Shown here: piece after piece, positions 1,142-18,673 of the stretch | How positions within the stretch are numbered: the stretch's first letter is position 1 | How the letters are laid out: each line of letters starts with the position of its first letter | DNA from: Candidatus Eiseniibacteriota bacterium | GTDB taxonomy: Bacteria; Eisenbacteria; RBG-16-71-46; SZUA-252 | DNA: 64,000 nt | Assembly: GCA_003235575.1 (NCBI GenBank) | Contig: QJVW01000128.1 | Span: 34,781 to 98,780 of the forward strand | Direction of reading: 5' to 3' | Notes under the pieces: model-generated | Told to the model about the DNA's origin: nothing | Seen by the model: the letters and a program-made list of their open reading frames with translations, nothing else | The model's database searches: none | Translations under genes and position numbers: made by a program

Positions 1142-1311
1142 TCCTCCCGTGAACGGCCCGGCGTTGCGCGCCGAGGAAAAAAGAAACGGGGAGCGTCGCC
1201 GTGCGGCGATCGCTCCCCGTCAGTACGTCGCGCTACTCGGTGCGTGGAGCACGGTTCGAAAACAGTTCGAGTAGCGGTGGCCCGAACCATCGGACCAAAG
1301 ATGTCACCGGC

Positions 1312-1527
1312 TTAGTGCGTTCCCTCCGCCGGGGCCATCGCCGAATCCGGGCTCGCCATGGTGGCGGACGAATCCATCATCATGTCGCTTTCCGGAGTGG
1401 TTTGCTCCATGCCGCCATCGGCACCGCTCTCGGTCGCCGGCATCTCTTCCTTCTGGTTGCAGCCCAGCGCGAAAACCAGCGCGAGCGCGAACACGAAAAC
1501 GAGAGCCAGAGTTAGCAGCTTCTTCAT
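1312..1527 (-). CDS. Small Met-rich lipoprotein
   Basis: Likely start MKKLL, 9 nt after an AAGGGAGGTGA RBS. Signal peptide with lipobox FALGC. Mature part is rich in Met/Asp/Ser (DMMMDSSATMASPDSAM) and ends in His. Confidence 0.5.
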   Translation of the reverse strand: MKKLLTLALVFVFALALVFALGCNQKEEMPATESGADGGMEQTTPESDMMMDSSATMASPDSAMAPAEGTH

Positions 1528-1743
1528 TTTCCTGATCACCTCCCTTCGATCCTATTGTCACGTCCCAAGACAACGTTCGGGTCAACACCCCCACAAAGCA
1601 AAACACCACTGCGAACGCGGTGGTGGTCGAGGTGTGAGCCGTTCGTCGTTCTTCAGCATCGGGAATGCCCTTTCCAGGGAGCCCGGAACGAAATCTCGTC
1701 GGACGGTACGGAGTCCCCCAGGGGGTGTCAAGGTAGATTTTGT

Positions 1744-2889: not shown

Positions 2890-4358
2890 GGCGCCAGATA
2901 TTCGAGGAGGTCGAATCGCGTCACGATGCCGATCGGTTTCCCCTGGGAGTCGGTCGCCAGCGCCGCGTTGCTCGTGGCCAGCCGTTGCAGCACCTGCGGC
3001 AGGGTCGCGTCGAGCGAGACGGTGGGGAGCGTCTTCTCCAGGAAGTACTCGACGCGCGCGTCCTCGGCGGCCGAGCCGTCGATCACCTTCTGGAAGAGCG
3101 CGCCTTCCGTCACGGCGCCGACAACGCCTCCGTCCTTCAGCACGGGTAGCTGCGAGATGTTGAATTCACGGATCAACGCGAGCGCGCGCGTGACCGGCTC
3201 GTCGTACGCGACCGACACGAGCGCCGGCACGTGGCTTCCCTTGCCCCGAAGCACTTCGCCGACCGTGATCATTCCCGAGTCGAGGAGCCGGTTGTCGCGC
3301 ATCCACTCGTCGCTGTGCACCTTCGAGAGGTACCGCTCCCCCGTGTCCGGGATCAGGACCACGACCAGTTCATCCTCCTTGGCCCGCCGCGCGACCTGCA
3401 GCGCGGCGAAGAGGGCCGTCCCCGCCGAGCCGCCTGCGAGAATCCCCTCCTCGCGGGCCAGACGTCGCGCGAGGTTCAGCGACTGCGCGTCGGTGACCGA
3501 GATGACTTCGTCCACGACCGAGAAGTCGTACACCGACGGGATGAAGTCCTCGCCGATTCCCTCCACCTTGTAGGACTTCGCGGGCACCATCTTCTTCGTG
3601 TAGAAGTAGTCCTTGAGGATCGATCCGACGGGGTCCGCGCCGATGATCTTGACGTTCGGATTCTTCGACTTGAGATAGCGCGCGGTGCCGGTGATCGTTC
3701 CCCCGGTGCCCATCCCGGCCACGAAGTAGCCCACCTTCCCCGCCGTCTGACGCCAGATCTCCGGGCCCGTGCTGCGGACGTGGGCCTCCGGGTTCGTGGG
3801 GTTGTGATACTGGTTCGCCAGGTACGCACCCGGGATCTCGCGCGCCAGGCGTTTCGAGACCTCGTAGTACGACTCCGGCGAGTCGGGTGGCACGGCCGTC
3901 GGCGTGATGATGACCTCGGCGCCGAACGACTTCAGGAGATTCACCTTCTCGACGCTCACCTTGTCGGGCATGACCAAAATGGCGCGGTAGCCTTTCACCG
4001 CGGCCACCATCGCCAGACCGGTCCCGGTGTTCCCCGAGGTCGCCTCCACGATGGTGCCGCCCGGCTTGAGGAGGCCCTTCGCTTCGGCCTCGGCGACGAT
4101 CGCGACGGCGACGCGGTCCTTCACGGATCCGCCCGGATTGAAGTACTCGACCTTCGCGAGCACCGTCGCCTTGCAATCGCGCGTCAGTCGGTTGAGTCGG
4201 ACGAGCGGCGTGTCGCCGATGGTCTCGAGAATGTCGTCGTGCCATGTGGGTTCGGCCGGCGCACCGGCGGCGCGCGTGGCGGCCGGGGCCGTACTGCCGG
4301 TCGTGCGGTTCACGGAGGATCTCGCAGTTGAGGGTGGATCGTCGGGTTCGTCCCTCAA
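2886..4358 (-). CDS. Cystathionine beta-synthase (cysteine-synthase PLP domain plus C-terminal CBS/Bateman pair)
   Basis: 490 aa. PLP fold II motifs (GSVKDR, SGNTGTGLA) followed by tandem CBS domains. 4-nt overlap with the downstream gamma-lyase gene. Confidence 0.75.
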   Translation of the reverse strand: MRDEPDDPPSTARSSVNRTTGSTAPAATRAAGAPAEPTWHDDILETIGDTPLVRLNRLTRDCKATVLAKVEYFNPGGSVKDRVAVAIVAEAEAKGLLKPGGTIVEATSGNTGTGLAMVAAVKGYRAILVMPDKVSVEKVNLLKSFGAEVIITPTAVPPDSPESYYEVSKRLAREIPGAYLANQYHNPTNPEAHVRSTGPEIWRQTAGKVGYFVAGMGTGGTITGTARYLKSKNPNVKIIGADPVGSILKDYFYTKKMVPAKSYKVEGIGEDFIPSVYDFSVVDEVISVTDAQSLNLARRLAREEGILAGGSAGTALFAALQVARRAKEDELVVVLIPDTGERYLSKVHSDEWMRDNRLLDSGMITVGEVLRGKGSHVPALVSVAYDEPVTRALALIREFNISQLPVLKDGGVVGAVTEGALFQKVIDGSAAEDARVEYFLEKTLPTVSLDATLPQVLQRLATSNAALATDSQGKPIGIVTRFDLLEYLAP

Positions 4359-4419
4359 CGCTACGGCCCCGGGCGGGGCCGGTCAAGATGGGACTTCGCG
4401 CCGCGCGGGCGCGGAGAGA

Positions 4420-4818
4420 TTACGCCGAAGGCGACGCCGCCTTCAGCAGCGCCTCGATGTGGGCCAGGATCTCGCTGAATTCGTACGGCTTCGTGATGAA
4501 GCGATTGGCGCCCATCTGGATCGCGAGCGCCTGATCCCCTTCCTGCGTCCTCGCCGAAAGGATGATGATCGGAATGTGCCGGTACCGCTCGTCGAACTTG
4601 AGAAGCCGGCACACCTTGTACCCGTCCAGTTTCGGAAGCATGAGATCGAGGAGGATGATGTCCGGCCGCGATTCGCGGGCCATCTTCAGTCCTTCCTGTC
4701 CGTCGGTCGCGATCTCCACCTGATACCCGGCGGCGCGAAGCCCGAACTCGAGGATCCGGGTGAGGTCCGGCTCATCGTCGACCACCAGGACGCGTCCGCG
4801 GGATGTCTCGGGGCTCAT
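4420..4818 (-). CDS. Single-domain CheY-like response regulator
   Basis: 132 aa receiver domain (VLVVDDEP...DIILLDLMLPKLDG...KP). Lies at the end of the pilus locus. Confidence 0.7.
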   Translation of the reverse strand: MSPETSRGRVLVVDDEPDLTRILEFGLRAAGYQVEIATDGQEGLKMARESRPDIILLDLMLPKLDGYKVCRLLKFDERYRHIPIIILSARTQEGDQALAIQMGANRFITKPYEFSEILAHIEALLKAASPSA

Positions 4819-4886
4819 GAACGTACCTCCTTAGAAACCGTGTCGATGCGGCGTTGTCATCACGATCAGGTCCAACGTACGGCTCG

Positions 4887-5192
4887 TCATGGCGTGATGC
4901 TCGAAGCGCGCTCCGGGACGCGCGTCGTCGCGTTGCCGGCGCGCCCGCGCCACTGGAACGGATCCCCGCCCCACCCGTCCGGCGTCGGCGTCGCGTTGCC
5001 GGCGCGCGACGGCGAGGCGGGCTCCGCGGCGACCGACGGCGCCGGGGCGCCGGACGCCCCCTCGGCGCGCAGACGGCGCGTCGTGCCGTCGAGCGCGTAG
5101 ACGCCGAGGAGCACGACGAGCAGAACCCCCACGAGGGCGTACGCCCGCGGATTCATCCCCTCCCGAATCTGCCTCGTCCACCACCGCATCAC
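4887..5192 (-). CDS. Small bitopic membrane protein of unknown function, possibly a PilP-position analogue
   Basis: About 90-100 aa with one N-terminal TM helix and a Pro/Ala-rich periplasmic tail. Sits directly downstream of pilO, where pilP normally lies, but no clear homology. Confidence 0.3.
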   Translation of the reverse strand: MMRWWTRQIREGMNPRAYALVGVLLVVLLGVYALDGTTRRLRAEGASGAPAPSVAAEPASPSRAGNATPTPDGWGGDPFQWRGRAGNATTRVPERASSITP

Positions 5193-5198
5193 GGCCTC

Positions 5199-5774
5199 CT
5201 AGGGCGTCCCATAGACCCAGAGGGTCACGTCCGCGACCAACCGGGGCGCCACGGACGCCTCCTGCCGGAGCGCCACCGAACGCACGACGACGAGTTGCTC
5301 CATCGACTCCACGTCCGCCAGGTACTCGCCGATGTCGCGGTACCGCGCTTCCAGGCGAAGCCGCAGCTCCGCCCGTTGGTACGCCACGATCGCGCCCGAG
5401 GCGTCCGTCACCGCCTCGTCCACCGGTTTCCCGATGGGCTGAATCAGGGTCATGCGCGTCCCGTGCGCGGCGCCGATCCCGGCGAGCGCGTCGAGCAGCG
5501 AGGTCACCATGGTTCCCGCCGGCGCCACGTGTCGCGCACGGACGCCGACCCCGTCCTCGCCGCGATCCCCCCGCTTCCAGCGATCCATCTGCTGGATTCC
5601 TGCGTGGAGCTCCGCGACGTCGGCGTTGAGCCGTTGCTCCTCCTCCCGCAGCGTCCGTCGCTCCGCCTCGCGCGGCTTGACCCACGCGACGTGCGTGACG
5701 CCGAGCGCGACCAGGAGGCCCACCAGGATGAGACCGTGGCCACGCCACGCGGAACGCAGGAACGCGAGGCTCAC
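5199..5774 (-). CDS. pilO: Type IV pilus assembly protein PilO-like
   Basis: 191 aa. N-terminal TM helix, coiled-coil segment and C-terminal periplasmic domain. Lies immediately after the pilM-pilN fusion with an ATGA overlap. Confidence 0.55.
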   Translation of the reverse strand: MSLAFLRSAWRGHGLILVGLLVALGVTHVAWVKPREAERRTLREEEQRLNADVAELHAGIQQMDRWKRGDRGEDGVGVRARHVAPAGTMVTSLLDALAGIGAAHGTRMTLIQPIGKPVDEAVTDASGAIVAYQRAELRLRLEARYRDIGEYLADVESMEQLVVVRSVALRQEASVAPRLVADVTLWVYGTP

Positions 5775-7537
5775 GAGCCGGATCCCTCCGCCAGGCGCGC
5801 CGTGACCGTGAAGGCGCTGAGCGTCGGCGACACGCGCTCGCAGCGCTCGAGCCGGATTCCATCGAACACGGGCGAGAACGCGAGCGAGCGGAGCAGGTCC
5901 GCCAGCACGCGCTCCGGCGACGCGGTCCGCGTGTTCAGGAGCCCCGACAGTCGGACGGCGCGCGCCTCCGGCACCGCCGGCGCGTCCGTCGAGACCGCGG
6001 AAGGCTCCAGGACCTGGAGCGCCGTCAAGCGCACGTCAGGACCCACGCGATGGCTGAGGTCTCGGAGCGCGGTGGACCAAACCACCTGACTCCCGGTGAG
6101 CCGGGTCAGGAGCCCGCGCAGACGCTCTTCCTCCGCGCGCGCGTTTCGGAACTGCGCCACGGCGTCCCGTTGGGCCGCGTAGCGGTTCAGCTCCGCCTGC
6201 AAGCCGGCCACCCGCGCCCGGGAGCGGGCGACGTCGATCTCCGTCGGCGCGGCGATCGAAAGGAGCAGCATCACGGCCGCCGCCGCCACCGCCGGAGCGG
6301 GTACGGCATCCGCCATCCAGCCGACGGCGCTTCCGACTCCCGTTCCCGCGAGGAAATTGAGCGTCCCACGCCCCACCGACGCCATGGCCGCGCCCGAATC
6401 CGCCATCCCGTCGGCGATGGCGGGCTCGGCCGCGGCGCGTTCTCTCCCCCCCTCCGTATCGGCCACCGTGACCGGCATCTTGAGAACCCCGGCCAGGTAC
6501 GTCGCCAGGTTGGGTGTGCGGCGCCCGTCGCCCAGCAGCACCACTCGGGAGACCGCGTCGCCGAGAAACTGCTCGTTGCAGTAGTCGAAGGAATTCCAGA
6601 GCTCGCGGACGAGCCGCTCGAGCGCGGGCCGTAGCATGATCGAGACCGCGGCCAGCGGCACGTCGTCGACGAATGTCGCCTCCTCGGGTCCGAGGGGAAT
6701 TCCGTGCCGGCGTAGGAGCGCCTCGGCCGCTTCCGGCGATCGCTCGAGCGTTCCCACGCCGGGGACGACGATCTGCCGCAGGGAGGAGGCCAAGGTCGAG
6801 GCTCCGAAGGCGAGATCGCGGGAGAATCGGATGTCCTCGCCCTTCAGCACCAGGATCTGGCTCGCATCCTTGCCGACGTCGAGGTAGGCGACCACCTCCC
6901 CCGGCGAGAGGGCGCCGCGCCGCGCGAGGTCCGCGCGAAGCCCGGCGGCCGCGATGGTGATCGACCAGGGACGGAGACCCGCGGCGGTCAACAGCGAACG
7001 CCACTGGTCCACGCGGCGCCGGGGCGCGATCGCGACGACGACGGGTAGCTCCGCGGGCGGCGCGGCCGCGCCCTCGAGCGTCTCGTGGCGAATCACGGCT
7101 TCGGCGAGCGGGTAGGTGACCTGTTTGCGGCATTCCAATTCCAGCGCCGACGTCAGGTCCGCGGGCCGCAACCGCGGCATCGTCAGCCGCCGAACGATCA
7201 CGTCGGGGCCACCCAGCACGGCGACGGCGGGTCGGCCGCGCGCCCCGAGCTCCGCGACGATGGCGGTGAGCGCCGCCTGCTCCCGCGCCGGCCGCTCGGA
7301 CGAGCCGAGGTCGACGGGAATCGTGCGCGAGGCCGCCACGACGCGCACCGCGGAGCCGTTTCGCGTCACGCGCGTCGCGCGAAGCCGTTGCTCGCTCCCC
7401 TCGACCACGACGAGGTCGCTGGGAGGCATCGCGACGGCGCGCCTCCAGCGCTCGAGGACGCGCGCCACGACGGGTGAAGGGGAGCGTTTTCCCCCCGCCA
7501 CGCGGGACAGCAGATCCTTCAGCGCCGGTCCTTCCAT
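5771..7537 (-). CDS. pilMN: PilM (actin-like ATPase) fused to PilN
   Basis: Start MEGPALK chosen 16 nt downstream of the pilX-NHL stop. The N-terminal ~390 aa are PilM/FtsA-like. This is followed by a TM helix (AVAAAAVMLLLSIAAP), a coiled coil and a PilN-like periplasmic domain. Confidence 0.65.
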   Translation of the reverse strand: MEGPALKDLLSRVAGGKRSPSPVVARVLERWRRAVAMPPSDLVVVEGSEQRLRATRVTRNGSAVRVVAASRTIPVDLGSSERPAREQAALTAIVAELGARGRPAVAVLGGPDVIVRRLTMPRLRPADLTSALELECRKQVTYPLAEAVIRHETLEGAAAPPAELPVVVAIAPRRRVDQWRSLLTAAGLRPWSITIAAAGLRADLARRGALSPGEVVAYLDVGKDASQILVLKGEDIRFSRDLAFGASTLASSLRQIVVPGVGTLERSPEAAEALLRRHGIPLGPEEATFVDDVPLAAVSIMLRPALERLVRELWNSFDYCNEQFLGDAVSRVVLLGDGRRTPNLATYLAGVLKMPVTVADTEGGRERAAAEPAIADGMADSGAAMASVGRGTLNFLAGTGVGSAVGWMADAVPAPAVAAAAVMLLLSIAAPTEIDVARSRARVAGLQAELNRYAAQRDAVAQFRNARAEEERLRGLLTRLTGSQVVWSTALRDLSHRVGPDVRLTALQVLEPSAVSTDAPAVPEARAVRLSGLLNTRTASPERVLADLLRSLAFSPVFDGIRLERCERVSPTLSAFTVTARLAEGSGS

Positions 7538-7553
7538 GGATGTCCTTTCCGCG

Positions 7554-9059
7554 CTAGGAGCGCGACTCCGTCCACCCGACGACGGATAGCCCGCCGCCGG
7601 CAACGCGTACGCGCCGATTCACCGTGTCGGCGATGTAGAGCAAGCCGGTCGGGCCGACGGCGACCCCGGACGGCGCGGCCAGCCGCGCCCTCCGCGGCGG
7701 CCCTCCGTCGCCGTCGAAGCCGGCGACACCGGTGCCCGCGACGGTCGTGATGGCGCCCCCGACGGTGAACGATCGAACGGCGTGATTGCCTGTGTCCGCG
7801 ACGTAGACGTCCCCGGTGGCCCGAACGGTCACGGACACCGGCGCCTTCAGCGTCGCCGCCGCGGCGGCGCCGCCGTCGCCGGAATATCCGGCTGAGCCCG
7901 TGCCGGCTACCGTGGCGATCACCCCGCTTGCCGCCTCCACGCGACGGACCACGTGATTGGAAGTATCGGCAATGTAAACATCGCCATTAGAGGCGATTTC
8001 GACGCCCCGGGGGCCCCTCAGCCTGGCGGCGCCGGCGGATCCCCCGTCGCCGGAGAAGCCGGCGGCGCCGGTTCCGGCGACCGTGGTGATGATCCCGGTG
8101 TCGGCGCTGACCTTTCGGATCTTGTTGTTGCTCGTATCGGCGATGTAGAGGTCGCCGTTCGCGGCCAGCGATACCCCGCTCGGGTGCTTCAGTCGAGCGG
8201 ACGTGGCGGGGCCTCCGTCTCCCGACGATCCCGGCGATCCCGTTCCCGCGATCGTCGTGATGAGACCCGTCGCGTGGGCGACCCTGCGGATCGCGTGGTT
8301 CATCGTGTCGGCGATGTAGAGGTCGCCGTCGGGCGCCACCGCGACGTCCTCCGGGAATTGCAGCCGGGCCGACGTGGCGGGCGCTCCGTCCCCGGTGCGG
8401 CCCGGGCTCCCCGTGCCGGCGACGGTGACGATCTCGAGGGTGGCGGCATCGACACGCCGGATCGCGTGGTTGTCGGTGTCGGCGACGTAGAGCGAACCGT
8501 CCGGCCCGACGGCGACCCCCGCGGCGTTCGAGAGCGTCGCGGCCGTCGCCGGTCCACCGTCGCCCTCGTACCCGGAGCGGCCCGTCCCGACCTGGGTGGA
8601 CATCCCCGCGGTGGAGACCCGCACCTGAACGACCCGCTCGGCCCCACCGGATCGCCCGGTGGACACGATGCGCCTTTGGCCCGGCGGGAGTGGGCGGCCG
8701 GCCTCGTCCAAGGAGTCCGGAGCCGCGATCCAGAACGACGCCTTGCCGACGTTCTTGCCGGGCAGCGGCAATCCGCCCCACGAAGGCGTCCCCGAGAGTT
8801 TTACGATCGCGTACTCGACGCCGGCCTGCGCGGCGTAGAACGCGCGGTTCGAATCCAGGTGGTGGACGGAGAGACCCGCGTTCTCGGAAACCATCGCCGC
8901 GAGCGACAGGCCGAGAATCAGGAGGACCACGATCGTCGCGGTCACGACGACGACCGAAAATCCGGCGTCGGGGCGGGGCGCGGCCGCGGGCGCGAGCGGT
9001 AGCCGTGGCGATGGCGCGAGGCGCACCCGACGATCGAGCGTGGTGCGTGGACGACTCAT
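7554..9059 (-). CDS. PilX-like minor pilin N-domain fused to a six-bladed NHL-repeat beta-propeller
   Basis: The N-terminus (GFSVVVVTATIVVLLILGLSLAAMVSENAGL...RAFYAAQAGVEYAI) resembles the PilX_N fold. Six repeats of YxADTxNHxIRRV...ITTVAGTGxxGxSGDGGxAxxAxL follow. Lies last in the fimT-pilV-pilW-pilX order. Confidence 0.6.
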   Translation of the reverse strand: MSRPRTTLDRRVRLAPSPRLPLAPAAAPRPDAGFSVVVVTATIVVLLILGLSLAAMVSENAGLSVHHLDSNRAFYAAQAGVEYAIVKLSGTPSWGGLPLPGKNVGKASFWIAAPDSLDEAGRPLPPGQRRIVSTGRSGGAERVVQVRVSTAGMSTQVGTGRSGYEGDGGPATAATLSNAAGVAVGPDGSLYVADTDNHAIRRVDAATLEIVTVAGTGSPGRTGDGAPATSARLQFPEDVAVAPDGDLYIADTMNHAIRRVAHATGLITTIAGTGSPGSSGDGGPATSARLKHPSGVSLAANGDLYIADTSNNKIRKVSADTGIITTVAGTGAAGFSGDGGSAGAARLRGPRGVEIASNGDVYIADTSNHVVRRVEAASGVIATVAGTGSAGYSGDGGAAAAATLKAPVSVTVRATGDVYVADTGNHAVRSFTVGGAITTVAGTGVAGFDGDGGPPRRARLAAPSGVAVGPTGLLYIADTVNRRVRVAGGGLSVVGWTESRS

Positions 9060-9580
9060 AGCGACCTCAAGGCGGCGGCGCCCATCACGGAAACGCGCTG
9101 GCGGTCGCGACCGAGGCGAAGGTAGACGGTGACCCTGCGAATATCGGTCGCGGCCGGCGACAGAATCGGAACCGCCGCGCTCCCGTCGTCTCGCCAGTAG
9201 GCGAACGCCAGCGAATCCACGCCGGACGCGAGGGGGTTCGCGACTCCGCCGCGGGCGTACAGGAGATCGGCGCCGGGGGTGCCGTTCCAGGAGAGCCGGA
9301 CGACGACGGAATCCTGGTCGACGAACGTCACGGCGCCGGGGCGGGCCTCGGTCACGCTCGTCGCGTCGCGAACGCGCCGCAGTTCCCGCGTCATCCGCTC
9401 CTCGGCGTACCGGGCTTCCTGGAGAAGGGCTGCTTCGACGTCGACGTAGCGGTAGGCGCCGACGGCCTCGCGAAACACGCCGGCGAGCGCGAGCCCGGCG
9501 ACGGAGACGACGACGATGACGATCGTCAGTTCCACGAGCGTGAAGCCGGAGGCGAGGCCGATGGCGGACGGGCGGCTCAT
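9056..9580 (-). CDS. Prepilin-type minor pilin, PilW/GspJ-like
   Basis: Class III leader: ...ASGFTLVELTIVIVVV (G|F, E5). About 175 aa. Third gene of the minor-pilin block. Confidence 0.6.
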   Translation of the reverse strand: MSRPSAIGLASGFTLVELTIVIVVVSVAGLALAGVFREAVGAYRYVDVEAALLQEARYAEERMTRELRRVRDATSVTEARPGAVTFVDQDSVVVRLSWNGTPGADLLYARGGVANPLASGVDSLAFAYWRDDGSAAVPILSPAATDIRRVTVYLRLGRDRQRVSVMGAAALRSL

Positions 9581-10002
9581 GATCCGTAGTTCGTGAACCA
9601 CGTCGTTAGGGTCACGGGCGGGATGCCCGCGGCCGTGACGGTCACGCTCACGGTGCGATAGGTCACGCCGTCGAAGATCGAGTCGGGCGCCACGGCGATC
9701 GAACGGCTGTACGCGGGAAACGCCGGAATCGGAGTCTCCGGCGGATAGTTCGAGCCCACCAGGTAGGTGAAGCCGCGGGTCGTCGCGCGCCGGTCGGCCG
9801 TGATCTCTTCGAGCTTCGTCTGGGCCAGGTGCGCCGCCACGGAGACGCTTCGCGCGTCCGACGAACGGATGGACGTCGTCGCGAAGAGCATCGCGAGCGG
9901 CAGGACCGCGAGCCCGGCAATGACGATCAGGATCGTGACCTCGATCAGCGTGAAACCCGCCGCCCTGCGCGGCCGTCCCATGCCGCGGGCGCCCCGCCTC
10001 AT
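9577..10002 (-). CDS. Prepilin-type minor pilin, PilV/GspI-like
   Basis: AAGFTLIEVTILIVIAGL prepilin N-terminus. 141 aa. Confidence 0.6.
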   Translation of the reverse strand: MRRGARGMGRPRRAAGFTLIEVTILIVIAGLAVLPLAMLFATTSIRSSDARSVSVAAHLAQTKLEEITADRRATTRGFTYLVGSNYPPETPIPAFPAYSRSIAVAPDSIFDGVTYRTVSVTVTAAGIPPVTLTTWFTNYGS

Positions 10003-10508
10003 CGGACGCGCACCGCGCCGGTTTGCGGCGCGACCTCCACGGTGTCCTGAATTCCCTGGTAGGCGAGCACGACCCGGCCGGCCGTGACCAGTTCCACGCC
10101 CGTGGTGTCTCGGGGAACGCCGTACGAGTCGTAGACGACGGCCGGCGTCGACCCGAACGACGCCGAGGCGATCGACACGCCCCTCGTTTCGGTCAGCGCG
10201 TCGAACGCGACGGCGAGCGTCGCGCCGCGGTTCGCCGGATCGGTGAGGGCGGAATCGGAATGTCCCGCGTAGACGATGTACCGGCCGGCAGCGGCGTCGA
10301 AGCGAACGCCGTGCGGCGTGCGACTTCCGACCGCCCGGTTCTGCGCGTACCGGAGATCCGAGACGACGCGTCGCGCGGCCGCGTCGAGGCGAATCTCGTC
10401 GAGCGACGTCATGCTCGGCCAGGCGGCCCAGGCCAGGATGGCGAGCAGGGTGATCACGATGGAGAGCTCGACCAGCGTGAAGCCCGCGGCGGCAGGGATC
10501 CGGCTCAT
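9999..10508 (-). CDS. Prepilin-type minor pilin, FimT/GspH-like
   Basis: MSRIPAAAGFTLVELSIVITLLAIL, then LDxxARRVVSDLRYAQNRAV, which is typical of GspH/FimT. It is the C-terminal 169 aa of the tracked 737-aa ORF. The ATG overlaps the upstream gene's TGA (ATGA). Confidence 0.6.
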   Translation of the reverse strand: MSRIPAAAGFTLVELSIVITLLAILAWAAWPSMTSLDEIRLDAAARRVVSDLRYAQNRAVGSRTPHGVRFDAAAGRYIVYAGHSDSALTDPANRGATLAVAFDALTETRGVSIASASFGSTPAVVYDSYGVPRDTTGVELVTAGRVVLAYQGIQDTVEVAPQTGAVRVR

Positions 10509-12556
10509 GACGACCTCCCGGCCTGGTCCCGCCGCCCGCTCCAGCGGGCAGCGCGCGCGGGCTCGCCGGCCAGGATCCACGCGCGGGACGCGTCCGCGGC
10601 CAGCGCCGGGGACGGCTCGTCCTGAAACGCGCGTTCGAACCAGCGCGCCGCGTCGTCGTAGCGTCCGGCCGCCGCCAGGAACGCGGCCAAGCGGGCGGCG
10701 GATTCGGCCCGGTGGGGCGCGAGGGCGCGGGCCGCGAGGAGCGCGTCCAGGGCTCGTTCCGGCGCGCCTGCCGCCGCCGCCGTCACCGCGACGTTCCAGT
10801 GCGCCTCGGGCATGTCGAACCCGACGCGCGCCGCGTCCTCGTACCACGCGAGCGCGGCGGTCGCGTCCCCTCGATCCCAGAATGCGCGCGCGGCCGCGTC
10901 GGAGTAGGCGATGGCCAGCTTTCGGGTCACGAAATCGAACCGCTCCGGGTGCCCGGCGAGAAGCGCGCTGCTGCGCGGCCAGGACGCGGGGGGTCGCCAC
11001 GCCGTGATCGCGCGCGCAGCGGCCGGCCGCGCGCGCGACGCCAGACCACGCGTGGAGAACCCGACGCCCGCACGTTCCAGATCCGCGGGGGGCGTGGCGA
11101 ACCAGACCTCGCCGCCCGCCTCGATCGCGGCCAGATCGACATCGCGAGCGCGCTCGATCCAGTGGGATCGCGGGACGCCGGCGAGGCCGTACGCATCGCC
11201 GAAGACGCAACCGCGCCGATGGCGAACCGTGAGATCGGGCCGGGCGCCGTGTTGCCGGATCCAATGCGCGGCGAGAAACGTCTCGTTGTCGCCGTCCACG
11301 ACGAGCGTCGCGCCGCGCGGCACGGAGGCGAGGAGATCGCGGCCGTAGCGTTCGGGCAGATGAAATCCGGCGCGATCGCACTGCGGATAGTGAAATGCGA
11401 TCGAGCCGACGACGGCGAGCGAGCAGGCGGCGGCCGCCAGCGGGACGAGCAATCCCTGGGACGTGCCGGGGCGAACCGCGCGGCGCGACGCGCGCAGCAC
11501 CTCCGCCGCGCCGGACCCCGCGACGAGCGCGCCCATCGCCACGACCGGGATGAGGAACGGTTCGACCTGCGCCAGATGCTCGGCGTCGGGCGTGAACCGC
11601 ACGACGGCCGCCAGACCGACGGGCACGGAGAGCGCGGCGAGCACGGGCACGCGCAGGCCGCTCCAGGCGCGGCCCGCGGCGCCGGCGCCCGCGCGGCGGG
11701 CACGGCGACGGACGAGGACGATGCCCGCGACCAGCCCCAGCGCGAGCGCCACGGGCCCCAGGCTCGACGCGACGACGCGCGACATGCCCGCGATGGCGTC
11801 CACGAAGAGTTCGAGGCGGGGAGGATTCTGGGCCACCGCTCCGTACGCGCCGCGCGAGAAGACGTCCGCGAGCGCCTCCAGCGGTGCGCGCGATTTCCAC
11901 GCGTAGCCGGAACCGGCCAGCACGCGAAGCGGCACCACCAACGCCGGCGTGAGCCCCAGGACGATCCAGCCGGCCGCCCGGGCGACGCGCCCCCAGGTGA
12001 ACCACCGCGCCAGCACCCACGCGGCCAGGACGAGTGCGGGCGCGGCAAGCGTCTGGTGCGCGAGGTACGCGAGCCCCACGAAGAGGAAGAAGAGCGCGTC
12101 CGCGCGGCGACCGGCGCCGGCGCGGGACCGCGCGTTCCACGCGAGGTGGACGAGGGAAAGGAAGGCTGCCGCCGCGAGGCTGTAGACCTCCGCCTCGACC
12201 GCGGACCGCCACACGGCAATCGACGTGGCGTAGAGCGCGGTTGCCGCGGCCGCGCCGAATCGACCGACGCCCGACCGCCGGGCCAGCGACCAGAGCAGGG
12301 CCGCCGCGATCGCGGCGAAGATCAGCGAGAGCGCGTTCACCCGGAGCGCCAGCGAACCGAGCGGAATCGCGGCGACCGCGCTGGCGGCCGTCGCCCAGAG
12401 CGGATACCCCGGCGGATGGGGCACGCCGAAGGTGGAGGCGGCGAGAAGCAGCTCCCCCCCATCTCCCGCGCCGACACCCGGCGCCAGGGTACAGGCATAG
12501 AGCCCCGCCGCCAGCGTTCCCGCCAGCGCGCTTTCCGCAGCCTTCGCCGATCGCAT
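10505..12556 (-). CDS. DUF2723/TMEM260-like GT-C fold membrane glycosyltransferase with C-terminal TPR repeats
   Basis: 683 aa. Polytopic N-terminal region with a periplasmic-loop acidic motif (GDGGELLL) and PGYPLW. C-terminal TPR-like helices (ALAWYEDAARVG...RYDDAARWFERAFQ). Located between pilA and the minor pilins. Confidence 0.55.
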   Translation of the reverse strand: MRSAKAAESALAGTLAAGLYACTLAPGVGAGDGGELLLAASTFGVPHPPGYPLWATAASAVAAIPLGSLALRVNALSLIFAAIAAALLWSLARRSGVGRFGAAAATALYATSIAVWRSAVEAEVYSLAAAAFLSLVHLAWNARSRAGAGRRADALFFLFVGLAYLAHQTLAAPALVLAAWVLARWFTWGRVARAAGWIVLGLTPALVVPLRVLAGSGYAWKSRAPLEALADVFSRGAYGAVAQNPPRLELFVDAIAGMSRVVASSLGPVALALGLVAGIVLVRRRARRAGAGAAGRAWSGLRVPVLAALSVPVGLAAVVRFTPDAEHLAQVEPFLIPVVAMGALVAGSGAAEVLRASRRAVRPGTSQGLLVPLAAAACSLAVVGSIAFHYPQCDRAGFHLPERYGRDLLASVPRGATLVVDGDNETFLAAHWIRQHGARPDLTVRHRRGCVFGDAYGLAGVPRSHWIERARDVDLAAIEAGGEVWFATPPADLERAGVGFSTRGLASRARPAAARAITAWRPPASWPRSSALLAGHPERFDFVTRKLAIAYSDAAARAFWDRGDATAALAWYEDAARVGFDMPEAHWNVAVTAAAAGAPERALDALLAARALAPHRAESAARLAAFLAAAGRYDDAARWFERAFQDEPSPALAADASRAWILAGEPARAARWSGRRDQAGRSS

Positions 12557-12588
12557 GTGCGTCGTGTCCCCTATCCGAACAACGCGAC

Positions 12589-12615
12589 GGCGAGGCAGGA
12601 CCTCCCCGCCTCGCC
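12589..12615 (-). terminator. Putative stem-loop or weak terminator/attenuator downstream of pilA
   Basis: GGCGAGGC-(11 nt)-GCCTCGCC inverted repeat in the pilA-to-GT intergenic region. No strong U-tract. Confidence 0.3.
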
Positions 12616-12644
12616 GCGCTCAGGTCCGCCGTTGGGCGGTGATA

Positions 12645-13025
12645 TCAGTACGAGGAGTAGGCGTTCAGGTTCACCTTCGCGATGCCGGTGGTGGCGTTGT
12701 ACTGCCAGCCGCCCGTTCCGTCGATCCCGGGCGTCACCTTGACCGTGTTCACGTTGTTGACCGGCTCCTTCGGCACGCGACCGTCCGCGAAGATCGTTCC
12801 GTCGAGCGCCGGGAACGTCGCGTTTCCGTTGAGCGCGTTGCGCGCGTACTGGATCGCGATCGCCGAGCGGATCGAGCCGAGCTGACCCTTGATCGTGGCG
12901 ACGCGCGCCTGCTCGCGCATGTCCTCGTACTTCGGGATCGCCACCGCGGCGAGAATCCCGAGAATCACGATCACGATGACCAATTCGATCAGCGTGAAGC
13001 CCGACTCCCCCTGCTTCCGGTTCAT
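12645..13025 (-). CDS. pilA: Type IVa major pilin PilA
   Basis: 126 aa. Leader MNRKQGESG|FTLIELVIVIVILGILAAVAIP has G-1, F+1 and E+5. Small C-terminal domain ending ...NLNAYSSY. Confidence 0.85.
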   Translation of the reverse strand: MNRKQGESGFTLIELVIVIVILGILAAVAIPKYEDMREQARVATIKGQLGSIRSAIAIQYARNALNGNATFPALDGTIFADGRVPKEPVNNVNTVKVTPGIDGTGGWQYNATTGIAKVNLNAYSSY

Positions 13026-13144: not shown

Positions 13145-14362
13145 CTAGTGCCGGAAGGCGTTCATCAGGTTCCAGAGCGGCAGGAAGACCGCGAGGGCCG
13201 TGAAGAGGATCACCCCGCCCAGAACCGCCAGGATCATCGGCTCCAGCGCGGCGGAGAGGTTCTTGAGCGCGTAATCGACGTCCCTGTCTAGATATGCGGC
13301 CCCTCGGGCGAGCATCTTGTCGAGCGCGCCCGTCTCCTCGCCGACGCCGATGATCTCGACGACCAGCGGTGGGATGACCTTGCTGCCCCGGACCGGGTCG
13401 GTCAGCCCCTGGCCCGCGACCACGCCATCGCGCATCCGATCCACCTCGTCCTCCACGACCTTGTTCCCGAGGACGCCCCGGGCGATGTCCAGGGCGCGGA
13501 CCACCGGGATGCCGGCGGTGAGGAGCGCGGCCAGGACTCGAATGAACCGCGACACCACGAGCTTGCCCAGCACGACGCCGAACACGGGCACCGCGAGCAC
13601 CAGTTCATCCAGCCGCCTGCGTCCCGCGGGCGTGCGGGACCAGAGCACGCCTCCGATCGCGCCGGCGATCACGACAAAGAGGACCAGGAACCACTGTGTA
13701 TCGAAGAAGTCGCTGATCCCCATCAGCACTCTCGTCGGAAGCGGCAGTTCGGATCCCAGACCCCGGAACAGCGACGCGAAGCGCGGGAGCACGAACTTCA
13801 CGAGCACGAGGAACGCCACCACGAGTTCGATGCCGATCACCATCGGGTAGAACGTCGCCGAACGCAGACGCTGGTCGGTTTCTTCGCTGTACTCGAGAAT
13901 CGAAGCGATGCGGTCGAGCATCTCCGTCAGGAGACCGCTCTCCTCGCCGGCGTGAATCAGGCTCGCGTAGAGCTCCGGAAAGCAGCGAGGATGGCGCGCC
14001 ACGGCCTCCGTGAGCGTGCTGCCCTGCGCGATGTCGCCCCGGATCTGGTCGATCGCCTCGCGCAGCATTCGATTCGTCGCCTGCTCGCGCAGCATGCCGA
14101 GGGCCGTCACGAGCGGAAGCCCCGCGTCGAGCATCGTCTCGAGCTGACGCGTGAACAGGATCAGATCCCGCGTTCCCACCCTCCCGCCGAAGATCGGGAG
14201 CGCGCGGGGGCGGCGCGCCGCCGCGGCCCGCGGCGCCAACTCGATCGGGGTGAGTCCCATCGCGTGAACCTGCGCGATGGCGGCGTCGAGGTCGGGCGCC
14301 TCGACCGCGCCGTGGCGCGCGTCGCCCGTGGCCGCCACGGCGCGGTAGCGGAACGCCGGCAC
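13145..14362 (-). CDS. pilC: Type IV pilus platform protein PilC (GspF family)
   Basis: 405 aa. Two T2SSF repeats and three TM segments. Confidence 0.85.
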   Translation of the reverse strand: MPAFRYRAVAATGDARHGAVEAPDLDAAIAQVHAMGLTPIELAPRAAAARRPRALPIFGGRVGTRDLILFTRQLETMLDAGLPLVTALGMLREQATNRMLREAIDQIRGDIAQGSTLTEAVARHPRCFPELYASLIHAGEESGLLTEMLDRIASILEYSEETDQRLRSATFYPMVIGIELVVAFLVLVKFVLPRFASLFRGLGSELPLPTRVLMGISDFFDTQWFLVLFVVIAGAIGGVLWSRTPAGRRRLDELVLAVPVFGVVLGKLVVSRFIRVLAALLTAGIPVVRALDIARGVLGNKVVEDEVDRMRDGVVAGQGLTDPVRGSKVIPPLVVEIIGVGEETGALDKMLARGAAYLDRDVDYALKNLSAALEPMILAVLGGVILFTALAVFLPLWNLMNAFRH

Positions 14363-14365
14363 CGG

Positions 14366-16099
14366 CTAGGCCTCCGGAACGCGCGGCGCGCCGTCGAGGA
14401 TCGTGACGTCGTGCATCGTGACGCGGAGCGCTTCCTCCAGCGTCGTCAGTCCGGCCGCCGCCTTGCGGGCCGCATCCTCCGCGAGCGTTCGCATGCCCGC
14501 ACGGCGCGCGGCGCGCGCGATCTCGTCGGAAGCGGCGTGGGCGGCGATCATGCCGCGGATCTCGTCCGTGACCTCCAGGACCTCGTAGACGCCCAGGCGC
14601 CCGCGGTAGCCGGTGTCGCCGCACGCGCGGCACCCGGCGCCCTGAACGAACGGACCGGCGTCGCTCCCCAGGCCGAGGGAATCGAGGATCTCGGTCGGTG
14701 GGTCGACGCGCCTGCGGCACTTGTCGCAGACGCGCCGGACGAGCCGTTGGGCCACGATCCCGTTCATCGCCGAGGCGAGAAGGTAGGGGGCGATCCGCAT
14801 GTCCAGAAGCCGCGGGATGGCCCCGGCGGCGTTGTTCGTATGGAGGGTGGAGAACACGAGGTGCCCCGTGAGCGCGGAGCGGACCGCGATTTCGGCGGTA
14901 TCGTCGTCGCGCACTTCGCCCACCAGGATGACGTCGGGGTCCTGGCGCAGGAGGGCGCGGAGGCCGCGGGCGAACGAGAGACCGATGTCGGGATCCACCT
15001 GGGTCTGGCGCACCGCCGGGACGTGGTACTCGACCGGATCCTCCAGCGTGACGATGTTCCGGCTCACCGTGTTGATGGCGTGAATGCAGGCGTACAGCGT
15101 CGTCGTCTTGCCGCTTCCCGTGGGGCCCGTCGCCAGGACGATGCCGTTCGGGCGCCCGATCATCCCCTGCAGGACTGCGAGCGCATCGGGCGCGATTCCG
15201 AGTTCCGCCAGACCCCGCAGCGGCGAGGTGAGATCGAGAAGGCGAAGCACGACGTTCTCGCCGTGAATGGTCGGGAACGTCGAGACGCGGAGATCGTATT
15301 CCCGGCCCGCGATGACCGTGCGGATCCGCCCGTCCTGGGGCAGCCGCCGCTCGGCGATGTCGAGCGAAGCCATCACCTTGATGCGGGAAGCGACCGAGGC
15401 GTAGATGCCCTTCGCCTGCGAGGAGACCTCCTGAAGCTGGCCGTCCACGCGGATGCGGATGCGAAACGTCGTGTCGTCGGGCTCGATGTGAAGGTCGGAA
15501 GCCCCCGCGCGCGCGGCCTGCTCGATGATGGCGTTCACGAAGCGAATGATCGGGCCGTCCTCCTCGGGACGGACCGCCACCGCGGCCGCGGCCTGCCGCA
15601 GCGTTTGCTCCTGAACGATGGAGTCGAGATGCCCCGACGTCGGAGCGTGGCGCTCGATCGCGTCGAGAATCTGGGATTCGAGGGCGACGACGGCGTCGAC
15701 TTCGAGGCCGGTGCTCACCCGGATCTCGTCGCGGGCCACCACGTCGAGTGGATCGGCCATGGCGACGGTCAGCGTGTTTCCGATCTTGAAGAGGGCGACG
15801 GCGAGGTATTGGCGCGACACACGTTCGGGAACGAGCCGCACGATCTCCGGCTCCAGCACGTAGGTGGAGAGGTCCATGCGCGGCACGCCCAGTTGCTCTT
15901 CGTAGTAGTCGAGGATCGCGGATTCGGGCACGAGGTCGCCGCGCCGGAGCACGTCGCGAAGGGACGCGCCGGTGCGCCGCTGCTCATCGAGCGCGGCCGC
16001 CAGCGCTTCCCTCGTCAAATGACCCTGCTCGACCAAGCACTGGCCGAGCGGTTTGCGTCCACCTGACTCCATGGGGGTGCCCTCCTCCGCGTCCGGCAC
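14366..16099 (-). CDS. pilB: Type IV pilus assembly ATPase PilB (GspE family)
   Basis: 577 aa. N-terminal GSPII_E_N domain, Walker A GPTGSGKTT, Asp/His boxes and a tetracysteine motif CxxC...CxxC. Confidence 0.9.
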   Translation of the reverse strand: MPDAEEGTPMESGGRKPLGQCLVEQGHLTREALAAALDEQRRTGASLRDVLRRGDLVPESAILDYYEEQLGVPRMDLSTYVLEPEIVRLVPERVSRQYLAVALFKIGNTLTVAMADPLDVVARDEIRVSTGLEVDAVVALESQILDAIERHAPTSGHLDSIVQEQTLRQAAAAVAVRPEEDGPIIRFVNAIIEQAARAGASDLHIEPDDTTFRIRIRVDGQLQEVSSQAKGIYASVASRIKVMASLDIAERRLPQDGRIRTVIAGREYDLRVSTFPTIHGENVVLRLLDLTSPLRGLAELGIAPDALAVLQGMIGRPNGIVLATGPTGSGKTTTLYACIHAINTVSRNIVTLEDPVEYHVPAVRQTQVDPDIGLSFARGLRALLRQDPDVILVGEVRDDDTAEIAVRSALTGHLVFSTLHTNNAAGAIPRLLDMRIAPYLLASAMNGIVAQRLVRRVCDKCRRRVDPPTEILDSLGLGSDAGPFVQGAGCRACGDTGYRGRLGVYEVLEVTDEIRGMIAAHAASDEIARAARRAGMRTLAEDAARKAAAGLTTLEEALRVTMHDVTILDGAPRVPEA

Positions 16100-16194: not shown

Positions 16195-17439
16195 CTAGCG
16201 CTGGAAGGCGTTGGGATCGATATCCGGGGCGTCGAAGTCGGGGGCCAGCTCGGGCTCCTGGTCGATCTCGGGACGGGCGTCCGCGCCAAGGTCCGAGAGG
16301 GTCAGTTCCGTCCAGGCCAGAACTTCCTTGGGCTCCTCCGATGCGACCCGCGCCGACGGCTCGGCGGCGGTGGCGACGGCGGCCGAGTCGGCGACGGCGG
16401 CCGAGTCGGCGACGGCGGCCGAGTCGGCGGGAGCAGGGACGGCGGCCACGGTGTCGGCGGAGGCGGAATCGCCGGTGGTGAAGGAGGAGTTCGGCGCCGC
16501 GATCGCGCTGTCGGGGCCGGCCGCGAGACGATCAGCGGCCGGCGGGACCGCCTTCACCTCGGACTGAAAGACGGAGCGGGCGAATCCGGTCAGGGGTACC
16601 GCGGCGTTCTTCCAGAACGTCTGGGTTAGAACCAGGTGGTACTCCCGCCCCCCCTCTTCCGCCACTGGCCACCGGTCGGTGCCGGCGCGAACCACCTGCT
16701 CGACGGTGGAGGGCACGAGCCGCTGGCCGAGGAGAAGCGTATCGGGACCCACCACGGTGTGGATCGGCGTGATGGTGGGGTCGTACTCGAATAGCTCGAA
16801 ACTCGCGACGTCGCCGGACGCACGCGAATACCGCGTCGTGCCCACCGGGTATTCGTAGAGCTTTCCTCCTGGCGTGAGCACTTGGTAGCGCAGCATGACG
16901 AAGGAGTCGGCGTCGGAGACCGTCGTGGGCGCCGTCGGCGCGGGATTGAGATCGCGGGGAGGCGAACTGGCGTCGCCGGGCTCGGCGGTTTCGAGGATCT
17001 GGGAGCCGTCTCCGCCGGGAAGCAGATCCTGTCCGCGCAGCGCCGCGGGGGCAAAGAAGCCCCGTTCGATCCGTTCCGTGCCGCGTCCATCGGTGGTCTT
17101 CAGTTCCACCCAAAGCCCCCACCGACCCTGGCCCAACTCCTCCTTCGCGACGACCGCCAAGCGTTGGTCGTACTCGCGCACGGCCGATCCGCGACTCTGA
17201 GACCGGCCGTGGTACGAAACCCACGTGCCGACCAATTCGTGAGGCGGCAGCTTCAGGCTGCGGAGCTTGAGGGATTGCGCCCGAGCGCCGGCGGCCGGCG
17301 GGAGGAGGAGCAGGAGGCCGACGAGCGGCACGAGGATCCGCGCGTTCGTCGGCTTAGTCCCAGTGCGAGATATGCTCGACCGCCTCGTCATAATCGAAAT
17401 CCGGGCTCTGCTCGCGCGTGTGACAGCGCATACAGGCAT
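16195..17439 (-). CDS. Secreted hypothetical protein with a C-terminal (ADSAAV)n repeat and an acidic tail
   Basis: Signal peptide (LVPLVGLLLLLPPAAGARAQS). The start may be the internal MTRRSS. No recognisable domain. The C-terminus carries a tandem hexapeptide repeat encoded by the 18-bp repeat. Confidence 0.4.
   Translation of the reverse strand: MPVCAVTRASRARISIMTRRSSISRTGTKPTNARILVPLVGLLLLLPPAAGARAQSLKLRSLKLPPHELVGTWVSYHGRSQSRGSAVREYDQRLAVVAKEELGQGRWGLWVELKTTDGRGTERIERGFFAPAALRGQDLLPGGDGSQILETAEPGDASSPPRDLNPAPTAPTTVSDADSFVMLRYQVLTPGGKLYEYPVGTTRYSRASGDVASFELFEYDPTITPIHTVVGPDTLLLGQRLVPSTVEQVVRAGTDRWPVAEEGGREYHLVLTQTFWKNAAVPLTGFARSVFQSEVKAVPPAADRLAAGPDSAIAAPNSSFTTGDSASADTVAAVPAPADSAAVADSAAVADSAAVATAAEPSARVASEEPKEVLAWTELTLSDLGADARPEIDQEPELAPDFDAPDIDPNAFQR
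16375..16428. repeat. Perfect 3 x 18-bp tandem repeat (gacggcggccgagtcggc), with degenerate flanking copies
   Basis: Directly visible at 16375-16428. In frame within the 16195..17439 CDS, where it encodes ADSAAV x3. Confidence 0.8.
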
Positions 17440-18673
17440 CGGGGCCGACGGGATTGCTTCCGTCGGGGTGCTTGGTCCCCATGCCGTGGCAATTCTCGCA
17501 CTGTACGTTCACCAAGTCGGGCGTGCTTTGCCGCGAGATGAATCCGCCCGCCTGGCCAAGGCCGACGACATGGCAGGCCAGGCACTCGGGGGTCGCGTCG
17601 CGCTGCTGATCGACAAGCGTCTGGAAGGCGTGCGCGTGCGGGTTGTCCTTGATCTTCTCGTACTCGGCCTCGTGGCACCGCCGACAGGTCTTCTCGCCCA
17701 GGTAGTGGTCCCCGGCCAGTTGGGCCTGGGTGGCCTGCTGTTGCGCCTGGGCCTGCGCGGCGTTCTGGGCCTGGAAGCGGCGGTTCATCTCGTCGCTGAA
17801 CGAATCCACCATCTCGTTCATCGTCTCATCCGCGGGGACCTTGTCGTCCAGCACCGTCACTTCGCCGTCGAACGAAGCGATCTTCCGATCCTCCACGACC
17901 AAGTGGACCGCCGGGATGTGCTGCCCACGCTCCCCGCCGCGCACGGTGATCACGTCCTGGGTCTGGACGATCTGCTTGAAGAGCCCGCTCTGATGTCCGA
18001 AGACCATCACGTCGATCCCGGGGGCTTCGATCGTGAGCTTTTGCCCCTCGACGTAGCCGAGGTGGGAAAGCATCACGACGATATCCGCCTTCTTGTGAAG
18101 CTCGGGGATCAGTTTCTGGGCGGTCGCGACGGGATCGAGGACCTCCAGCGCCGGGTCATCCGGGAAGGAGCGGAACTTGGCGTCCTTGAAGATCAATCCC
18201 GTGAACGCGACCTTGACCCGTCCGGCGCGCTTGATCACGTACGGCTTCACGAAGGGCTTCTTCGAGTCGGCGTAGACGATGTTCGCCGCCACCAGATCGA
18301 TCTTCGTGTTCTTGAACGCATCGAGCAGGAACTTCTGCCCGTGGATGAGCTCGCGCTCCCCGATCGTGGCCACGTCGTAGCCGAGCCGGTCCATCGCGTC
18401 GACCATGAACGCGCTCTTCAGGGAATCCTGCACGCCCCCCGCGCCGAAGAAGTCTCCCGCGTCGACCAGGAAGTGATTCGGAAATTTCGTCGCACCGATC
18501 TTGAGTTGGCTCGCCCTCCGGGCGAGCCCGCCTAGCGGGTGCGCGTGTCAGCCACAGGGGGCGAGCTCTCCGTACACATCCGTGGTGCTCTGAATCAGGA
18601 TGTCGACGGGAGCGCTCTTCCCTTGGAGCGACGCGGCCGCCGTAAGTCCAAGGGCCGCAAGAAGAAAAAGCAT
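17354..18673 (-). CDS. Signal-peptide 5'-nucleotidase/metallophosphoesterase-like domain (degenerate metal site) fused to a C-terminal tetraheme cytochrome c; contains one in-frame TGA at 18548-18550, so either a candidate selenoprotein or a pseudogene
   Basis: The ATG at 18673 gives MLFLLAALGLTAAASLQG|KSAP (Sec signal) ...ILIQSTTDVYGELAPCG-TGA-HAHPLGGLARR...FLVDAGDFFG...GERE...VFGHQ. This is the 5'-NT motif order with substituted metal ligands. Four CxxCH motifs follow: CRRCH, CLACH, CENCH, CMRCH. The tracked ORF starts only at the GTG at 18433, in the same frame. Confidence 0.55.

Follow-up and report, generated by a model that had tools for sequence, protein, structure and literature searches.

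The type IV pilus gene cluster in a 64,000-nucleotide stretch of contig QJVW01000128.1 from Candidatus Eiseniibacteriota bacterium (hereafter the window, meaning the whole stretch analyzed) contains, between the major pilin gene pilA and the minor pilin genes, a gene encoding a 683-amino-acid (aa) membrane protein which, judged by its sequence, is a member of the family of human TMEM260. This protein is proposed to be a periplasmic O-glycosyltransferase dedicated to the pilin, with a polyprenyl-phosphate sugar as its donor, a reading to which a probability of about 0.62 was assigned. That it is an active GT-C glycosyltransferase with such a donor appears highly probable, and its dedication to the pilus, with the pilin or pilins as acceptor, appears fairly likely. 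The source organism is an uncultured soil bacterium known from a metagenome-assembled genome. A preliminary description of this DNA had already interpreted the gene as a pilin glycosyltransferase. This interpretation was supported, since an acidic motif was found where a GT-C enzyme requires it and the gene was found next to pilus genes in relatives. The gene and the domains of its product, the latter delimited on an AlphaFold2 model, are the following.

10505-12556, minus strand: enzyme open reading frame (ORF), 683 aa, TMEM260-like (DUF2723, PF11028) GT-C glycosyltransferase
11372-12556, minus strand: GT-C transmembrane domain with 11 helices, about aa 1-395
10952-11371, minus strand: periplasmic Rossmann-like domain, about aa 396-535
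10508-10951, minus strand: TPR domain, about aa 536-683

The region has a GC content of 70-75%, and further long ORFs occur in alternative minus-strand frames and on the plus strand, including one of 676 aa at 10712-12742 (plus strand) and one of 737 aa at 9999-12212 (minus strand). The 683-aa ORF, present on the minus strand as described before, was taken as the true coding frame because of its GC content at third codon positions (0.88), its match to Pfam PF11028 (aa 32-181, E=1.2e-16, 61.5 bits against a cut-off of 24.2) and its 143 homologs in a large protein collection, of which nearly all the named ones belong to Candidatus Eisenbacteria. The overlapping 676-aa and 737-aa ORFs were regarded as spurious.

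An alignment of 42 orthologs (A1), about 50% identical overall, was used for a profile and for the AlphaFold2 model. When searched against the PDB with hmmsearch, the profile matched human TMEM260 (9rql_A) with E=1.1e-57, query residues 11-426 aligning with residues 30-465 of the chain; the assignment to DUF2723/TMEM260 proposed earlier is thus backed by both the Pfam match and the solved human structure. No sequence-level alignment of the TPR region to TMEM260 was obtained in this profile match, and the region on its own matched TPR proteins such as OGT. The model (predicted local distance difference test score, pLDDT, 92.3; predicted template-modelling score, pTM, 0.92) has 11 transmembrane helices, the first of which is followed by two short helices in the periplasm; the Rossmann-like domain is an alpha/beta fold of five strands (417-510), and the TPRs comprise eight helices (542-682). 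The C-terminal TPR repeats noted previously were recovered in these helices and in weak Pfam matches at aa 554-653. No Pfam match was obtained in the enzyme for the O-antigen ligase-like domain Wzy_C at E<=0.01, nor for PMT, PMT_2 or MIR, and no NCBIfam glycosyltransferase model matched it. On the Pfam results, membership of the TfpO/PglL type and of the PMT type was ruled out.

The active site could be compared residue by residue with that of the human enzyme, in which the substitutions D52A, H67A, R264A, Y267A and D441A abolish activity (10.64898/2026.03.17.711096). D52 and H67 form the sugar-recognition motif and R264 and Y267 belong to the donor-loading loop, D52A having first been tested in the 2023 TMEM260 paper, and D441, in the Rossmann-like domain, was assigned as the general base beside the acceptor Thr (10.64898/2026.03.17.711096). 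The positions were mapped with the HMMER alignment and, independently, with a MAFFT alignment of the human fragment and 23 bacterial sequences. Both gave the same result, and the five essential positions were conserved in 23/23 of the bacterial sequences. In the window enzyme they correspond to the following residues, all of them invariant in A1.

D32, codon 12461-12463, minus strand: counterpart of TMEM260 D52, in GDGGEL (aa 31-36)
H47, 15 codons downstream of D32, minus strand: counterpart of TMEM260 H67, in HPPGYP
R235, minus strand: counterpart of TMEM260 R264
Y238, minus strand: counterpart of TMEM260 Y267
D423, codon 11288-11290, minus strand: counterpart of TMEM260 D441, in DGDNETF, where D421-G-D423 stands against R-G-D441

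The suggestion that the acidic GDGGEL motif is the GT-C catalytic motif was therefore borne out, D32 aligning with the essential D52 and a second acid, D423, with D441. Over 40 orthologs share these five residues without exception, although their overall identity is only about 50%, so that selection appears to maintain the active site. This invariance argues against the protein being a non-catalytic TPR membrane scaffold or chaperone for the pilin or for pilus assembly that has lost its enzymatic function. This alternative was considered because the protein has a C-terminal TPR domain, TPR proteins (PilF/PilW/Tgl) being common pilus assembly factors, and because the secretin gene is missing from the window cluster; it was judged very improbable.

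Structural neighbors of the enzyme model include ArnT, AftA/AftB and ALG enzymes, whose substrates are lipids or glycans. They would fit an acceptor that is not a protein at all, namely a lipid, cell-wall component or exopolysaccharide needed for pilus passage or function, as for ArnT or the arabinosyltransferases, in which case the link with the pilin would be one of co-regulation only. The loss of the secretin from the window cluster, and the additional GT-C (PMT_2, YfhO), GT2 and GT4 genes found alongside the enzyme in loci of Candidate Phyla Radiation (CPR) bacteria, point in the same direction. The closest relative by sequence (E=1e-57), however, is a protein O-mannosyltransferase, and the window enzyme has kept the features that handle a peptide: the base in the Rossmann-like "palm", which lies beside the acceptor Thr in TMEM260, and the TPR "fingers". 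Moreover, the Eisenbacteria loci have no glycan-synthesis genes beside the enzyme, and a non-protein acceptor was considered very unlikely.

The association with the pilin was analyzed in two collections. In species-representative genomes, a pilin gene was located immediately upstream of the enzyme gene in 33/33 informative loci, that is, those with enough upstream sequence; the two failures were contig ends. A metagenome scan for members of the wider family, in which neighbors were classified by tblastn, placed a pilin immediately upstream in all 12 of the informative loci of the Eisenbacteria type and in the single informative locus (1/1) of the type of a sister lineage (L041). Synteny among the Eisenbacteria loci extends to the flanking LptD, HU and cytochrome genes and to pilB. 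Since the whole neighborhood is syntenic, these loci amount to one evolutionary observation, regardless of the taxa to which their genomes were assigned, and the adjacency could reflect inherited gene order only, with no functional link to the pilus.

This explanation fits poorly with the sister lineage (L040, L041, L045/P0124 and L049; 27-41% identity), in which the cluster has been rearranged to the order minor pilins, PilX, pilMN, pilO, secretin, response regulator and then pilin and enzyme. There the pilin and enzyme genes have relocated together to the opposite end of the cluster, parting from both the minor pilins and pilB/pilC. The pair is also present in a separate clade of a distant phylum with a different type of pilin, the enzyme gene has a 4-nt start/stop overlap within its operon, and no pilin lies near 44/47 other family members. 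Mere inheritance of gene order is already largely refuted by these independent occurrences and retains a very small probability. Conservation of the gene next to pilA in relatives, a check suggested in the preliminary description, was thus seen in all the informative loci, also after the rearrangement, as well as in the separate CPR clade.

In the rest of the family the pairing is an exception. Among the other DUF2723 metagenome loci, a pilin was found immediately upstream in 3/47 informative cases (44/47 without one), and the remaining 58 loci of this group yielded no pilin-like ORF at any position. Three additional distant members, one of them an Eisenbacteria paralog, likewise had pilus-free contexts. 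The three pilin-paired exceptions (L071, L097 and L111) belong to low-GC organisms (37-41% GC); their pilin is of another kind, longer and with C-x-x-C at its C-terminus, and the genes stand in the order pilT-pilC-pilin-enzyme. Homologs of their enzymes were named Patescibacteria, Gottesmanbacteria, Levybacteria and Roizmanbacteria. Loci of this CPR type are arranged as follows.

L129 (CPR): pilB-pilT-pilC-pilin-enzyme, followed by a prepilin peptidase and minor pilins
L097 (CPR), 2306-7995: pilT-pilC-pilin-enzyme, followed by a second GT-C (PMT_2) and a YfhO-type protein
L131 (Levybacteria), 190-5078: pilin-enzyme-GT2-DUF2304-GT2-methyltransferase-GT4, the first GT2 of 222 aa
L130 (CPR): enzyme next to genes for GT4 and GT2 proteins; the pilin-like gene is not adjacent but 3 kb off

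In L131, the GT2 and DUF2304 genes form a plausible polyprenyl-phosphate sugar synthase pair. In a rough neighbor-joining tree, which is only indicative because of the high divergence, the Eisenbacteria and sister enzymes formed one clade whose nearest outgroup was a non-pilin Eisenbacteria paralog, and the CPR enzymes formed a separate clade. The family comprises about 3,570 clusters at 50% identity (E<=1e-30), of which about 15 score like the Eisenbacteria/sister clade. Pairing with a pilin is thus a mark of specific subfamilies within this large family.

A single case was also noted in which a non-pilin DUF2723 member with TPRs (L046, 4065-9586) lies divergently beside a gene for a 753-aa TIG/IPT-domain protein. 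TIG/IPT is the domain type that is O-mannosylated by TMEM260 in animals.

Within the window, the gene order proposed earlier, with the enzyme wedged between pilA and the minor pilins, was confirmed by the ORF list and by Pfam. The pilus genes are listed here.

14366-16099, minus strand: pilB, MshEN and T2SSE extension ATPase (Pfam)
13145-14362, minus strand: pilC, T2SSF platform protein (Pfam)
12645-13025, minus strand: pilA, major type IV pilin of 126 aa ending in AYSSY (N_methyl prepilin motif)
12587-12617, minus strand: 13-bp GC-rich hairpin in the spacer between pilA and the enzyme gene (folding)
9999-10508, minus strand: GspH/FimT-like minor pilin (Pfam/NCBIfam-level matches)
9577-10002, minus strand: PilV-like minor pilin
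9056-9601, minus strand: third minor pilin, in a PilW-like position
7554-9059, minus strand: PilX_N pilin-like N-terminus fused to six NHL repeats (Pfam)
5771-7603, minus strand: fused pilM-pilN-like gene, 610 aa (Pfam), the fusion being kept in relatives
5199-5774, minus strand: pilO-like gene
4420-4818, minus strand: response regulator

The spacer between pilA and the enzyme gene measures 88 nt. Its folding energy is -47.7 kcal/mol in total (z=-3.3), and the orthologous spacers contain equally strong hairpins at the same place but of different sequence. Lacking a T-run, the hairpin was missed by a simple scan for the terminator consensus; it probably acts as a stem-loop at the 3' end of pilA, or as an attenuator, and cuts read-through into the enzyme and minor-pilin genes. 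A high expression of pilA with less read-through into these genes therefore seems likely from the presence of the hairpin. At its other end, the TGA of the enzyme gene overlaps the ATG of the GspH/FimT-like minor pilin (ATGA at 10505-10508), an overlap of 4 nt that is also present in the gene calls of orthologous loci. Because of this overlap, the enzyme and the first minor pilin are probably translationally coupled.

Such a layout raises the question of whether other pilus components (the minor pilins or the PilX-NHL protein) are the target, or whether the enzyme is a broad-spectrum periplasmic protein O-glycosyltransferase riding in the operon, with the major pilin as at most one target. The coupling is to the first minor pilin and not to pilA, from which the enzyme is separated by the hairpin. 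Human TMEM260, for its part, acts on the beta-sandwich IPT domains of several receptors, and in Neisseria there are general O-glycosylation systems whose targets include pilins. After the rearrangement in the sister lineage, by contrast, the enzyme stayed with the major pilin and parted from the minor pilins and PilX, and the NHL domain is absent from PilX in the rearranged lineages. In CPR bacteria the enzyme directly follows the gene in the major-pilin position after pilC, and general roles could be served by the Eisenbacteria DUF2723 paralogs located outside pilus loci. Such a wider or different target was considered unlikely, and a pilin-dedicated enzyme was preferred.

The presumed acceptor was also analyzed. 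Mature PilA has 117 aa and ends in Y114-S115-S116-Y117, so the AYSSY C-terminus reported before is correct. Eisenbacteria pilins contain no cysteines and therefore lack the usual disulfide-bonded D-region. When 30 distinct mature sequences were compared, the distant lineage included, T89 and S115 were the only periplasmic positions always occupied by Ser/Thr, and the C-terminus Y114-S115-x-Y117 was invariant (AYSSY, with GYSTY, GYSDY or AYSSY in the sister lineage). Glycosylation at S115 in the C-terminal tail was proposed on this conservation, as a distinctly doubtful assignment, and T89 is a second candidate acceptor site. The likeness of AYSSY to known O-glycosylation termini is at most suggestive: it has the invariant Ser, but this residue is third from the end and TfpO modifies the terminal one. 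In TMEM260, the acceptor sits near the C-terminal end of an extended peptide running from the TPR fingers to the palm (10.64898/2026.03.17.711096); by analogy, and as a speculation, a flexible C-terminal pilin tail would fit this geometry. A single-sequence AlphaFold2 prediction of the pilin reached a pLDDT of 53.8, its globular domain being unreliable, and carries no information on whether the C-terminal tail is exposed.

The acceptor sequon proposed for human TMEM260 is P-x5-P-x3-G-P-x2-[GA]-G-G-x2-[ST]. An invariant pilin stretch at mature residues 90-100, P90-G-x-x-G-x-G96-G97-W-x-Y100, bears a partial likeness to its core, with Tyr at the acceptor position. It was rejected as evidence for a TMEM260-like sequon, the match being partial and post hoc.

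The proposed mechanism can be outlined from these data. The 11-helix membrane domain would bind a polyprenyl-phosphate monosaccharide at the periplasmic face, where D32, H47, R235 and Y238 would grip the sugar-phosphate. The TPR fingers and the Rossmann-like palm would clasp a pilin along an extended segment before it is released from its anchorage in the inner membrane, and D423 would deprotonate a Ser/Thr hydroxyl for its attack on the anomeric carbon. PilA, and perhaps minor pilins as well, would thereby receive an O-linked sugar ahead of polymerization. The donor would be a polyprenyl-phosphate hexose, mannose by analogy. The enzyme gene would be co-transcribed at a low level behind the hairpin that follows the highly expressed pilA, and would be translationally coupled to the minor pilins. 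The pay-off could be masking of the pilus surface or stability, as for the pilin glycans of Pseudomonas aeruginosa.

Several observations weigh against this proposal, in addition to the shared synteny of the Eisenbacteria loci and the separation of enzyme and pilin-like gene in L130. No genes for polyprenyl-phosphate sugar synthases or sugar-nucleotide enzymes were found in a Pfam sweep of 30 further window genes. Inspection of the pilin alignment did not reveal the long TMEM260 sequon as such. Pilins are far more conserved than the enzymes, so the conservation of Y-S-S-Y need not signal a glycosylation site. Finally, R355 in transmembrane helix 10 of TMEM260 contacts mannose, R355A retaining about 20% activity (10.64898/2026.03.17.711096), and this position is P333 in the window enzyme. 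It is P/V/A in the Eisenbacteria and L041 lineages and R/K in the CPR lineage. The replacement by P333 means that in this clade the sugar is possibly other than mannose, and mannose itself, proposed by analogy, was considered somewhat doubtful. Around the same position (aa ~323-333, window 11540-11590), a clade motif P-D-[AS]-x-H-x-x-Q (TPDAEHLAQ here) is shared by the pilin-linked enzymes of Eisenbacteria and of the sister lineage, and is missing from the non-pilin paralogs and from CPR enzymes; it may be the sign of another sugar specificity.

Some further features of the cluster were recorded. The PilX_N-NHL protein, with its beta-propeller, may be a candidate tip adhesin; PilX of the sister lineage is short (140-164 aa) and lacks the NHL propeller. 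The pilQ secretin gene is gone from the window cluster (4818-5199, minus strand), where a pilP-like remnant of the first ~82 codons (5189-4947; 45% identity to the protein of locus L002) and a secretin remnant of the last ~26 codons (4914-4837) persist. These remnants suggest that about 1.6 kb has been deleted. The secretin is also gone in a 58%-identity relative (L001/L009), pilP and pilQ are kept in L002-L005, and no secretin was found elsewhere in the window. Upstream of pilB, at 16195-18433, lie genes for a 414-aa protein, whose orthologs have no Pfam match on record, and for a multihaem cytochrome (c554-like in orthologs), an arrangement kept in all the Eisenbacteria loci examined.

In other parts of the window, four successive minus-strand genes (49092-52829; 568, 239, 194 and 220 aa), none of them with a Pfam match at E<=1e-4, are followed by an outer-membrane-protein beta-barrel gene at 52937-53575. 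A gene at 26798-28366 encodes a response-regulator receiver fused to a PglZ domain (522 aa) and adjoins a histidine kinase gene at 28370-29674.

Pilin glycosylation alters pilus surface chemistry, phage susceptibility and pilin stability. In the literature surveyed, TfpO and TfpW are the only types of pilin-modifying enzyme described as encoded next to pilA. TMEM260 was recognized as a glycosyltransferase only in 2023, and that paper, the only one in the literature searched to mention DUF2723, notes merely "distant homologs in bacteria". No paper combining TMEM260 with bacterial pili was found in the same literature, and a study of the Saccharibacteria pilus predicted pilin glycosylation without naming an enzyme. 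An accessory GT-C/TPR glycosyltransferase for pilins is thus known in principle; what would be new for pilins is the family of the enzyme, the lineages that have it and a mechanism, as proposed here, with its base in the Rossmann-like palm.

The pairing provides a first proposed target for the bacterial branch of the TMEM260 family and a concrete, easily testable substrate hypothesis. If it is true, the pilin would be the first known substrate for the prokaryotic branch of the family that gave rise to the metazoan IPT-domain O-mannosyltransferase. The pilA and enzyme genes would then be a simple two-gene system for acceptor recognition by a Rossmann-like/TPR "hand", and a candidate enzyme would be available for pilin glycosylation in CPR bacteria, whose pili mediate episymbiosis. 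More tentatively, and with rather low confidence, the bacterial TMEM260 enzymes could be a third, unrecognized class of pilin O-glycosyltransferases beside TfpO/PglL and TfpW, recruited at least twice (in Eisenbacteria and the sister lineage, and in Gottesman-, Levy- and Roizmanbacteria), that works as a hand in the manner of TMEM260 and places a single sugar on an extended part of the pilin, for example the Y-S-x-Y tail.

Among the known systems, human TMEM260 (PDB 9RQL/9RQM/9RQN), which O-mannosylates the IPT domains of plexins, cMET and RON, shares with the window enzyme the same hand of "wrist, palm, fingers", namely an 11-helix GT-C core, a Rossmann-like domain and a TPR domain, and, by homology, an active-site face on the non-cytoplasmic side. 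The two differ in location (periplasm of a bacterium versus endoplasmic reticulum), in the donor lipid (bacterial polyprenyl phosphate versus dolichyl phosphate) and in the acceptor (presumably a type IV pilin versus an IPT domain). The catalytic base in the Rossmann-like luminal domain sets TMEM260 apart from other GT-C enzymes (10.64898/2026.03.17.711096). The PMT/POMT and TMTC enzymes (GT39, GT105) are more distant: the window enzyme has no MIR, and its likeness to PMT is at the fold level only.

TfpO/PilO and PglL are also membrane enzymes that modify pilins, and tfpO too lies directly after pilA; TfpO modifies the C-terminal Ser of the P. aeruginosa pilin itself. Unlike the window enzyme, they belong to a Wzy_C-type family, move a preassembled undecaprenyl-diphosphate-linked oligosaccharide en bloc and lack TPR or Rossmann-like domains. 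TfpW of P. aeruginosa, a group IV pilin D-arabinofuranosyltransferase of 646 aa with a cytoplasmic N-terminus, adds oligomers of D-arabinofuranose at several Ser/Thr, and its donor genes are unlinked. Its published motifs were not found: the 42/42 orthologs have no DD of the DDX motif (periplasmic loop 1) in their first 70 aa, where the loop reads G-D-[SG]-G-E-L, and a regular expression for YX6PFX7P (loop 4) is absent from all 42/42. Membership of the TfpW type was rejected on these two motifs, and the window enzyme is set apart from TfpW as described, a distant common origin being possible. The parallel with TfpW/TfpO drawn in the preliminary description therefore fails for the published TfpW motifs and stands for position and architecture. 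TfpW and the window enzyme share 11 transmembrane helices, a periplasmic C-terminal TPR domain, a size of about 650 aa and a gene directly downstream of pilA, and by analogy it is TfpW that the window enzyme would most resemble in its way of working.

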